Below, one piece after another: positions 23,193-24,952 of a stretch of DNA of 26,367 bases. Position 1 is the first letter of the stretch. Each line of letters opens with the position of its first letter. The position numbers and the translations under genes are program-made. The DNA lies in assembly GCA_049512075.1 (NCBI GenBank), contig JBEKXL010000029.1, positions 1-26,367 on the forward strand, given 5' to 3'. Origin of the DNA: Candidatus Bathyarchaeia archaeon. Lineage in GTDB: Archaea; Thermoproteota; Bathyarchaeia; Bathyarchaeales; Bathycorpusculaceae. The notes below the pieces were generated by a model. The model did not search any database and had not been told where the DNA came from. It saw nothing but the letters and a program-made list of their open reading frames with translations.

Positions 23193-24209
23193 ATGTCGGA
23201 AATTCGAGAAGTAGAGTTGACAAAGATACAGAATAGCAAATTAAATCCGCGGTTAGATATTGACCCTCAGGAACTAAGTGAACTCGCCCAGAGTATTCGT
23301 GAGGTGGGCATGCTCCAACCAATTATATTGCGACCAATAGGAACAGGAAAGTTTGAAGTTGTCGTTGGACAACGCCGTTTTTTCGCAGCAGGAAAACTTG
23401 GGCTCAAGAGAGTACCGGCAATTGTCCGCGAGTACTCTGATGAAGAAGTCGTCGAATTAAACCTCATAGAGAACATCCAGAGGACTGAATTAAGCGCTGT
23501 GGAGAAAGGTCGTTCTTGTAAAGAACTAATGGAGAAATATCATCATGTATATCCAAACGTAAAAGCGATTGCGTCCAAGATTGGAGTTTCAGGCACCACC
23601 GTAAGAAGCTGGCTTCAATTGGTAGAGGCGCCTTTAGAAATTCAAAGGATGGTTGCACCATCACCAAAAATAGGCGTTCCAAGAGAAGCTGGAAAAATAG
23701 ACTGGGATACTGCTGTATCTATCACTCGTCGTATCGAAAGCAAAGAGAGACAAATTGAGGTTGCAAAAGAGATAGCCAGTAAACCCATCTATCGAAGAGA
23801 AGCAAGGGAGGTTATCTCCCGGGCGGTCAAAGAACCAGAGAAGTCTGTAGGGACATTGATTAAAGAGGTCATTGAAACTCCTTATGAGCTTCCATTTAGG
23901 CTTAGTCACATGGATCCTATTCTAAAAGGCGTCAAAACTCAAACTAGTCGAAAAGGCATTCCAGACCCGAAAGTCAGAGTTGGCGCCAGAATTCATGCAG
24001 CCGTCTGGGAACCTCATTTTGCTGATCTAGTAATTACCTCAATTGAACGAAAGCGTTTGGGCGATTTCACAGATGAAGACGCCCGAAGAGAAGGGGGTTA
24101 CACGTTGGAACAATTTAGAGAAGTGTGGAAGAACATTCATGGCGAATGGGATGAAAACGAATTCGTCTACACAATCCAATTCACAAAAGGAAAAGGAGGT
24201 GTAAACTGA
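23193..24209 (+). CDS. ParB/Srx-domain + HTH + C-terminal ASCH domain fusion
   Basis: NPR, ELAQSIREVGMLQPIILR, VVGQRR, ENIQRTELS, HTH IASKIGVSGTTV, then ILKGVKTQTSR...FTDEDARREGGYTLEQF...VYTIQF (ASCH GxKTxTxR and DAxxEG signatures). Confidence 0.88.
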   Translation: MSEIREVELTKIQNSKLNPRLDIDPQELSELAQSIREVGMLQPIILRPIGTGKFEVVVGQRRFFAAGKLGLKRVPAIVREYSDEEVVELNLIENIQRTELSAVEKGRSCKELMEKYHHVYPNVKAIASKIGVSGTTVRSWLQLVEAPLEIQRMVAPSPKIGVPREAGKIDWDTAVSITRRIESKERQIEVAKEIASKPIYRREAREVISRAVKEPEKSVGTLIKEVIETPYELPFRLSHMDPILKGVKTQTSRKGIPDPKVRVGARIHAAVWEPHFADLVITSIERKRLGDFTDEDARREGGYTLEQFREVWKNIHGEWDENEFVYTIQFTKGKGGVN

Positions 24210-24952
24210 AAACGTCTCGGGAAGAAGAAGAAAAAGTTCTTGTCTTGGTCAAAGCCACGCCAAACTGGAGCGTCCATCTGAAGCGATACACAGTCTGTAC
24301 CGCTGGGATAAGTGAAAACAATGAATGGCGAAGATTGTACCCAATGGAGTGGAGCACCATCAGGGACAAAGGTATCAAAGTTTGGGACAAAATCAAGGTT
24401 TCAACTTCCAAGCCTGAGAAGGACCCTAGACCTGAAAGTCGAAAGATAGACAACGAAAGCGTAGAGAATTGTGGGTGCGCCATCAAGGATAGGGAGGAAA
24501 GGCGAGAATTCCTCAATGCGTATACAGACACGTTGATTCCAGATGCCACTAAAACGAAGAAAACGCTCTCTATCATTAAGCCAATTCTATTTGGCTTCTC
24601 AGTAGAGAAGGAGAATGAGCGCGGTAAGCAAGTCACTATCGATGGAGATATTTTTAAGGTGCAACCTTACGGTGACATTTCGTTGACTTACCAGTTCAAA
24701 TGTGGAGAAAAAGGATGCGCTATATGCTCTCGAGTTCACAAATTTCATCACATGGAGTGTTTTGATTTTGGGGCAAATGAACTATACAGGAAATATCAAG
24801 ATGAAAAAGTAGCTAAGGAAAAAGTGCGTGAAGGCTGTTACACGAGAATGAAAGCAGACAACGATTGTTGGTTTGCCATGGGAACGCATAGCCAATATCC
24901 TTTCCTGAAATGGATGGTTGTTGGATTACTCTGGATGAAAAAAGCAAGCTAG
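24206..24952 (+). CDS. Conserved hypothetical protein, dual-OB-like N-terminus with Cys/His cluster
   Basis: VLVLVKATP...TVCTAGI....EWRRLYP...D.RPES.K pattern and CxxxxCxxC..H..C. Probable CTG start overlapping the upstream TGA, behind GGAGGTG. Confidence 0.75.
   Translation: MKTSREEEEKVLVLVKATPNWSVHLKRYTVCTAGISENNEWRRLYPMEWSTIRDKGIKVWDKIKVSTSKPEKDPRPESRKIDNESVENCGCAIKDREERREFLNAYTDTLIPDATKTKKTLSIIKPILFGFSVEKENERGKQVTIDGDIFKVQPYGDISLTYQFKCGEKGCAICSRVHKFHHMECFDFGANELYRKYQDEKVAKEKVREGCYTRMKADNDCWFAMGTHSQYPFLKWMVVGLLWMKKAS

Follow-up and report, generated by a model that had tools for sequence, protein, structure and literature searches.

The stretch of DNA under study, hereafter the window, corresponds to the complete contig C29 (26,367 nucleotides) of G000, the genome of a Candidatus Bathyarchaeia archaeon (2.73 Mb in 86 contigs). 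Near its right end lie two adjacent genes on the same strand, here called A and B (Table 1). Gene A encodes a fusion of a ParB N-terminal domain, a ParB-type helix-turn-helix (HTH) domain and an ASCH domain; gene B encodes a Cys-rich protein whose predicted fold resembles two oligonucleotide/oligosaccharide-binding (OB) domains in tandem. As judged by sequence comparison, the pair appears to be an ASCH-headed variant of PDC-M19, a catalogued candidate system formed by a DUF488 protein and a double-OB protein; this homology is far more secure than a role in defence.

Table 1. Features of the A/B locus and of related loci in the same genome (window coordinates unless another contig or locus is named)
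Feature	Position	Strand	Evidence
Type IIG restriction-modification enzyme, 1063 aa	18636..21827	-	Pfam Eco57I E 3.1e-28, MmeI_Mtase; PADLOC REase_MTase_IIG E 8.2e-112
EVE-like/NmeDI_C-like restriction endonuclease candidate, 358 aa	21948..23024	+	PADLOC REase_II E 2.8e-6
Gene A, ParB_N - ParB HTH - ASCH fusion, 338 aa; stop TGA 24207-24209	23193..24209	+	open reading frame; Pfam; NCBIfam parB_part E 3.9e-37
ParB N-terminal NTP-binding (CTPase-fold) domain, aa 3-96	23199..23480	+	Pfam ParB_N E 1.2e-28
Box II, GQRR	23367-23378	+	open reading frame translation, alignment
ParB-type HTH DNA-binding domain, aa 99-209	23487..23819	+	Pfam HTH_ParB E 3.1e-5, above cut-off
ASCH domain, aa 241-332	23913..24188	+	Pfam ASCH E 2.9e-9
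Octapeptide G-V-K-T-Q-T-S-R	23928-23951	+	within ASCH
ACG at conserved gene B start position	24212..24214	+	codon-by-codon comparison, 16 loci
Gene B, tandem-OB-like, Cys-rich, 235 aa from TTG (246 aa if from 24212)	24245..24952	+	open reading frame; PADLOC PDC-M19B
Partner-less ParB-HTH-ASCH of this genome (L113)	G000 C9:69968-70963		search of relatives and genome
Solo Cas1 beside second pair	L114 6762-7793		Pfam E 9.8e-49

A first-pass annotation, made from the letters alone, had described the product of gene A as a Spo0J-like ParB with GQRR in Box II, followed by an HTH and a complete C-terminal ASCH domain. All of this is borne out: Pfam recognises ParB_N, HTH_ParB and ASCH, NCBIfam likewise assigns a ParB/RepB/Spo0J-type front end, and GQRR is read directly in the translation. 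Residues N18-P19-R20, G59/R61/R62 and E93-N94/R97, which fall within the three nucleotide-binding boxes named in a survey of ParB proteins (bioRxiv 10.1101/2025.10.10.680097), are invariant among 28 partner-linked gene A homologues. The GQRR form is a quirk of the window's own small subclade and no family trait: Box II reads GERR in 51 of 55 ASCH-type A proteins and GQRR in the other 4, one of which duplicates the window exactly. The loop of the C-motif, GMLQP, is similar to GLLQS and GLQEP, the loops given for CTP binders in the ParB survey, which cautions that nucleotide specificity is not predictable. The only PADLOC model matching gene A at E <= 0.01 is MTase_II, on the ParB part.

Gene A shares Boxes I-III of ParB_N and the ParB HTH with canonical ParB/Spo0J, Noc and KorB, which act as CTP-dependent clamps. 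Unlike these, it has no ParA neighbour, its N-terminus lacks the LG-R/K-GL ParA-binding motif described in the ParB survey, and Pfam finds no C-terminal ParB dimerisation domain, aa 241-332 being occupied by ASCH instead. The earlier remark that the window contains no ParA holds, since C29 carries no AAA_31 match; nor do C2 and C9, the contigs of the other two ParB-ASCH genes of this genome, whose eight AAA_31 matches all lie on contigs C10, C28, C64, C6 and C13. The absence of a nearby ParA, of the dimerisation domain and of the ParA-binding motif led us to reject gene A as a partition ParB.

The C-terminal head of gene A looks like an active hydrolase rather than a mere binding module. A profile of 31 ASCH domains matches Escherichia coli YqfB (1te7) over its full length (E 6.7e-4), where a single-sequence phmmer search of the ASCH part against the PDB had given no relevant match. 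Residues K248/T251/R253/E300 of gene A align with K21/T24/R26/E74 of YqfB and are invariant in 28 homologues; in YqfB, the changes K21A, T24A and R26A each abolish activity and E74A slows the enzyme 100-1000-fold (PMC6972931). The AlphaFold2 (AF2) model of the domain (predicted local distance difference test score, pLDDT, 89.5) has as its best solved match in Foldseek YqfB with N4-acetylcytidine (ac4C) bound (9kyh_B, E 6.6e-8, template modelling score 0.76/0.84). The octapeptide listed in Table 1 places the head in the GK[T/S]R subgroup, linked to YqfB-type enzymes in a preprint (bioRxiv 10.64898/2026.02.27.708502) that also reports that 19 of 19 ASCH proteins assayed, GKTR-type archaeal ones included, stripped ac4C from tRNA. 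It is the combination of the aligned catalytic residues, the structural match and the octapeptide that suggests activity. The head thus shares with the ASCH N4-acetylcytidine amidohydrolases (1te7, 9kyf, 9kyh) the fold, the GK[T/S]R signature and the Lys-Thr-Arg-Glu set, at an identity of about 23% with YqfB. However, YqfB works on nucleosides as a free-standing monomer of 103 aa (PMC6972931), whereas here the domain closes a ParB-type DNA-binding protein that is coupled genetically to a protein of predicted OB fold.

Gene B belongs to no Pfam or NCBIfam family. Its product carries the VK..P, VCTAG and W.RLYP motifs picked out at first pass, and its AF2 model (pLDDT 81.7) consists of two beta-barrel halves. 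Foldseek gave no match at E <= 0.001, the top rows being tandem-OB proteins. In a wide structural search, aa 1-80 matched the OB folds of PriB, SSB and RPA (Z 6.2-7.2), and aa 93-235 matched RPA70 DBD-C, the RPA trimerisation core and Teb1 OB-C (Z about 6); a library of viral structures returned weak matches to baculovirus LEF-3 and phage SSBs. Within the close clade of B, residues C18, C153, C158, C161, H168 and C172 never vary, many polar residues are likewise invariant, and by our own comparison the Cys/His set fits a zinc site like that of RPA70 DBD-C. The two predicted halves of gene B thus resemble, at middling scores, the OB folds of SSB, RPA and PriB; in sequence it shows no similarity to SSB or RPA. 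The label "dual-OB-like" that the first-pass annotation had given it is reasonable on these models, short of membership of DuOB (PF22557): 3 of 31 relatives touch DuOB weakly (best E 0.0084; 16.6 bits, below the 27-bit cut-off), a search over 101 relatives found no match but is uninformative, the control genomes being silent as well, and in ESM Atlas a DuOB cluster appears at rank 21 with a score of 0.90. A staphylococcal-nuclease-like reading of the D-P-R-P-E-S motif, made by eye, was dropped as that fold is absent among the structural matches.

Both genes are under strong purifying selection (dN/dS 0.067 for A and 0.056 for B, each against the relative L008, with dS saturated). None of 450 candidates was a fused A-B or a longer form of B, which is weak evidence; prediction of the A+B complex from the two alignments scored 0.00 in a run without controls and speaks neither for nor against binding.

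The junction of the two genes differs from the 4-nt overlap initially proposed. The frame of gene B is open upstream, but no ATG, GTG or TTG precedes the TTG at 24245, and an overlap is possible solely with a CTG start at 24206. The conserved start position is occupied by ACG in the window; in most relatives it is ATG, GTG or TTG and opens a conserved M-S-W-x-K-E-S-V-L-V-L-V-K. ACG is also found in L034 and L008, the two closest relatives of the window, and the residues downstream are still conserved. Either translation begins at this ACG or by re-initiation, or it begins at the TTG and the protein has lost its first strand; depending on the start, gene B lies 2-35 nt beyond the end of gene A at 24209. 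The ACG shared by the three loci could reflect non-canonical initiation or re-initiation in an archaeon, or gene decay at its first step. In L008 the later position, too, is without TTG or GTG, the first canonical start lying 33 codons further in.

The relationship of gene B to PDC-M19 comes from PADLOC, whose PDC-M19B profile (PDLC04507) it matches with E 3.3e-25, aa 1-234 aligning with positions 11-242 of 252. Gene A has no match to PDC-M19A at E <= 0.01, and Pfam finds ASCH in it, no DUF488; in sister loci, by contrast, PDC-M19A models hit the A proteins in their DUF488 part (E 1.3e-39 to 7e-16). With PDC-M19, in which A is a DUF488 protein and B a protein of about 270 aa, the window pair shares a homologous B and a tightly spaced, same-strand operon with A first; it differs in that its A carries ParB_N-HTH and ASCH in place of DUF488. 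The first-pass suggestion of a new module is borne out in part: the pair is conserved, but one half of it matches a named candidate, so that it is a variant of PDC-M19 rather than an entirely new module. The sensor-plus-effector arrangement, NTP gating and defence role suggested at the same time are hypotheses. The link drawn at first pass between such partners and DUF488 was right, B homologues directly following DUF488 proteins in other genomes, as was the statement that DUF488 is absent here: the window contig has none, and the only match in the genome lies on C12.

The B family as a whole is large. Its profile retrieves 2942 representative proteins at E <= 0.001, 504 of them at E <= 1e-30, and an alignment of the far clade of B finds 57 loci on viral or proviral contigs of IMG/VR. 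DUF488 lies directly upstream in 39 of the 55 IMG/VR loci with a B open reading frame (ORF), and ParB or ASCH in none, as scored with small custom hidden Markov models; Pfam confirmed DUF488 in 10 of 10 upstream proteins sampled. Typically, A on viral contigs has about 290-330 aa, an unannotated N-terminal half and a C-terminal DUF488. Burroughs and Aravind, in 2023, are said to have defined a RapZ-C-DUF488-DUF4326 clade and to have predicted DNA-end processing for it. In archaea, DUF488 also occurs behind a ParB front: ParB-HTH-DUF488 fusions have the same ParB_N and HTH as gene A and the same kind of B downstream (L010, L005, L004 and 6 metagenome loci), but the head differs and the ParB parts, about 30% identical, fall in separate clades. 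Binding of CTP by an archaeal ParB-CTPase-HTH-DUF488 fusion is reported in the ParB survey, which describes ParB-ASCH fusions as enriched in archaea and does not mention a partner. In the literature covered, which did not extend to supplements or to Burroughs and Aravind 2023, neither the ASCH-headed form nor a head swap turned up; the main text of Rousset et al. 2022 does not contain "DUF488". One further locus (L002, G056 C40) combines a B homologue with an AbrB/MazE-DUF488 fusion; downstream of both, in the same orientation, comes a Shosta pair (ShosA E 4.5e-73, ShosT E 5.4e-25).

Within Bathyarchaeia, A and B form a tightly conserved two-gene unit that is specific to this group. A second pair is present on contig C2 of the same genome (A 64%, B 47% identical to those of the window). 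A scan of metagenome contigs yielded 80 loci, each classed by tblastn of the 1.5 kb upstream of B. Gene B is full-length in 69, of which 63 have at least 150 nt upstream; these 63 comprise 57 loci with an ASCH-type A (55 with the ParB part visible; one of the 57 a copy identical to the window) and 6 with a DUF488-type A (5 with ParB). An A-type gene is therefore found upstream of B in every one of these 63 loci, so the pair is conserved. The five loci from species-representative genomes divide into 4 ParB-ASCH and 1 ParB-HTH-DUF488; overall, the distribution is patchy, with B present in 5 of 61 genomes. The 11 remaining metagenome loci hold fragments of B: seven without an upstream A, which suggest gene turnover, three without upstream room and one cut at the contig end. 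Orphan C-terminal fragments of B without an upstream A, signs of repeated loss of the module, were seen at L007 (G000 C2:171017-171160, in the same genome), L003, L096, L102, L103, L107 and L110-L112.

The two types of A allowed us to follow the history of the head on a tree of B. The tree covers 49 Bathyarchaeial B proteins; the copy identical to the window was removed, as were L004 and L005, which belong to the far clade, and identical rows were collapsed. The six B proteins with ParB-DUF488 mates are scattered among those linked to ParB-ASCH. Five changes of A type are needed, at least three of them forced by the starred branches, and none of 200 bootstrap trees can do with just one. Forcing the six into a single clade costs 120.9 log-likelihood units and is rejected by the approximately unbiased (AU) test (p 0.000133). 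Hence, closely related B genes have repeatedly switched between ASCH-headed and DUF488-headed ParB proteins. This interspersion, with the rejection of a single origin, indicates that the two heads are interchangeable and argues that they do equivalent jobs, which is the main new point of this analysis.

We favour a self-contained module in which ParB-ASCH and a tandem-OB protein make up a variant of PDC-M19 with a proposed role in DNA processing against invaders; we give this reading as a whole a probability of roughly 0.55. Gene A would use its HTH to load on DNA, a step controlled by a bound nucleotide. This nucleotide is probably CTP, the best guess given the resemblance of the GMLQP loop to those of CTP binders and the CTP binding of the archaeal ParB-DUF488-HTH fusion. 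It would thereby bring to DNA the ASCH head, occupying the position where sister modules carry DUF488, and the head would hydrolyse or read an N4-acyl-cytosine-like base adduct. Gene B, with its apparent zinc site, would bind the single strands or DNA ends that this reaction creates or lays bare. Most likely, the module would serve to process invading viral or plasmid DNA. The DUF488/double-OB pair is very widespread, and its ASCH variant joins a head of known chemistry, with catalytic residues intact, to a ParB DNA-loading module; it thus offers the whole family a testable hypothesis, that of a DNA-directed enzyme head working with a binder of single strands or DNA ends. If true, an ASCH hydrolase would here, for the first time, be directed at DNA. 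The variant also gives a genetic partner to the ParB-ASCH fusions, so far just named as archaeal "RNA-related" fusions in the ParB survey. In a bolder version, to which we attach a small chance, the nucleotide-gated ParB clamp would deliver an ASCH eraser or reader of N4-acyl-type (or similar amide) cytosine modifications on incoming viral DNA while B keeps hold of the unwound strand, ASCH and DUF488 would be heads that can replace each other within a single modular immune system, demodifying DNA or processing its ends, and the partner-less ParB-ASCH would serve the host chromosome.

Several observations weigh against the preferred module. A single full-length ParB-ASCH without an adjacent B occurs in 19 of 60 relatives, and gene A may be a housekeeping gene. 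The ASCH proteins assayed to date act on RNA or nucleosides, not on DNA. As for B, its predicted OB-fold matches are middling (Z < 8), it has no match to DuOB at the 27-bit gathering cut-off, and the window copy lacks a canonical start at the conserved position. The group submitted to the AU test was chosen after an earlier quick tree had been viewed. PDC-M19 itself is one of 145 untested candidate systems obtained by "guilt by embedding" (Payne et al., bioRxiv 10.1101/2024.01.29.577857; the name PDC-M19 does not appear in its main text). Finally, the 150 flanking ORFs of 28 related loci are mixed and do not clearly mark a defence island: a few are methyltransferases, MADS-like, HerA, integrases, type ISP, MvaI/BcnI or Cas1, others are MCM, NrdD, ATP synthase, adenosine kinase, HhH-GPD or Endo_dU. 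In this genome, restriction-type genes adjoin both copies of the pair, which counts in favour of the module, as does the Shosta pair of G056.

The alternative that survives best, although its chances are modest, is that ParB-ASCH serves the chromosome as a nucleoid or repair factor that removes acyl-type cytosine lesions, the double-OB protein being an optional single-strand-binding helper. The partner-less copies, one per genome, are what recommends it, since they imply that A can exist or work alone. These copies (L014-L032 in relatives, and the one on C9 here) are 51-58% identical to the window A. Searching the genomes that have one for B turned up nothing beyond a far-type pair in G023, located on a different contig, and a fragment in G059. 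In a quick tree of 76 A proteins they form two clades that track taxonomy (genus and family), and the flanks of related loci include some repair genes (HhH-GPD 2, Endo_dU 1, Nre 1). However, both clades are nested within partner-linked diversity, although the root of this tree depends on a long outgroup branch and the direction of change is not secure, and the partner-less form looks like a vertically inherited, domesticated copy of the module's A gene. The paired form, moreover, is patchy, multi-copy in this genome and prone to leave orphan fragments, and the B family occurs on viral or proviral contigs and in a catalogue of candidate defence systems.

Unlikely, in our estimate, is a role in the maintenance of a mobile element, in which a ParB-like centromere or regulator protein and an SSB-like protein would serve replication, partition or anti-defence of an integrated plasmid or virus. 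The frequency of the wider B family, with its DUF488 mates, in IMG/VR fits this view, and the ESM Atlas clusters nearest to gene B are 36-71% viral. Tyrosine integrases flank the pair at L010 (integrase families account for 3 of the 150 flanking ORFs), and the island of the window sits at a contig end beside repeat-bounded small genes. However, none of the three ParB-ASCH genes has a ParA nearby, the dimerisation domain is missing, and around the operon there is no convincing parS-like palindrome, just short weak ones. The Bathyarchaeial clade of B was not found on the viral contigs scanned (15 pattern matches, none confirmed), and no replication or structural virus genes were found in the window. 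Highly improbable is an RNA-directed enzyme, with ASCH erasing ac4C on tRNA or rRNA and the ParB-HTH and OB protein binding RNA: it accords with the 19 of 19 assayed ASCH proteins and with the ParB survey's classing of ASCH as an RNA-related fusion partner, but the same survey describes ParB_N and ParB HTH modules as DNA-loading devices wherever studied, both the exchange with a DUF488 head and the resemblance of B to SSB/RPA folds speak for DNA, and the neighbours are DNA restriction genes.

These neighbours occupy the right end of the window, a variable island in which small unannotated ORFs, the type IIG enzyme, the EVE/NmeDI_C-like gene and the A+B pair follow one another; the restriction-modification genes noted at first pass are indeed adjacent. 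The left two-thirds or so are housekeeping, with aRF1, a P-type ATPase, a phosphorylase-like gene and malate dehydrogenase. The protein encoded immediately upstream of the pair has no Pfam match, but its nearest ESM Atlas clusters (scores 0.97-0.98) are 100% NmeDI_C, with EVE in 13-29% of members; it resembles a fusion of an EVE reader and an NmeDI_C-type endonuclease, a candidate for modification-dependent restriction. No homologue of it lies beside the pair at other loci, so it is not a conserved companion of the two genes. The second pair (L114, G000 C2:58000-74000) sits between the solo Cas1, which has no tandem repeat array within 16 kb, and a 696-aa protein without an assigned family; beyond the latter come a DUF2357 and PD-(D/E)XK protein, possibly McrBC-like, and a UvrD helicase.

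Scans of the window with Rfam and for tRNAs gave no matches, and a scan for bacterial-type promoters and terminators gave chance-level results only. At the border between the housekeeping part and the island, a 42-nt direct repeat (95% identical; 16367-16408 and 17003-17044) flanks a 175-aa ORF, and beyond it a 39-nt repeat is present in three copies at 17803-18000. In the left part, an 866-aa ORF (2966-5566) encodes beta-propeller/WD40-like repeats and has a local G+C content of 55-60%, compared with about 44% elsewhere in the window.

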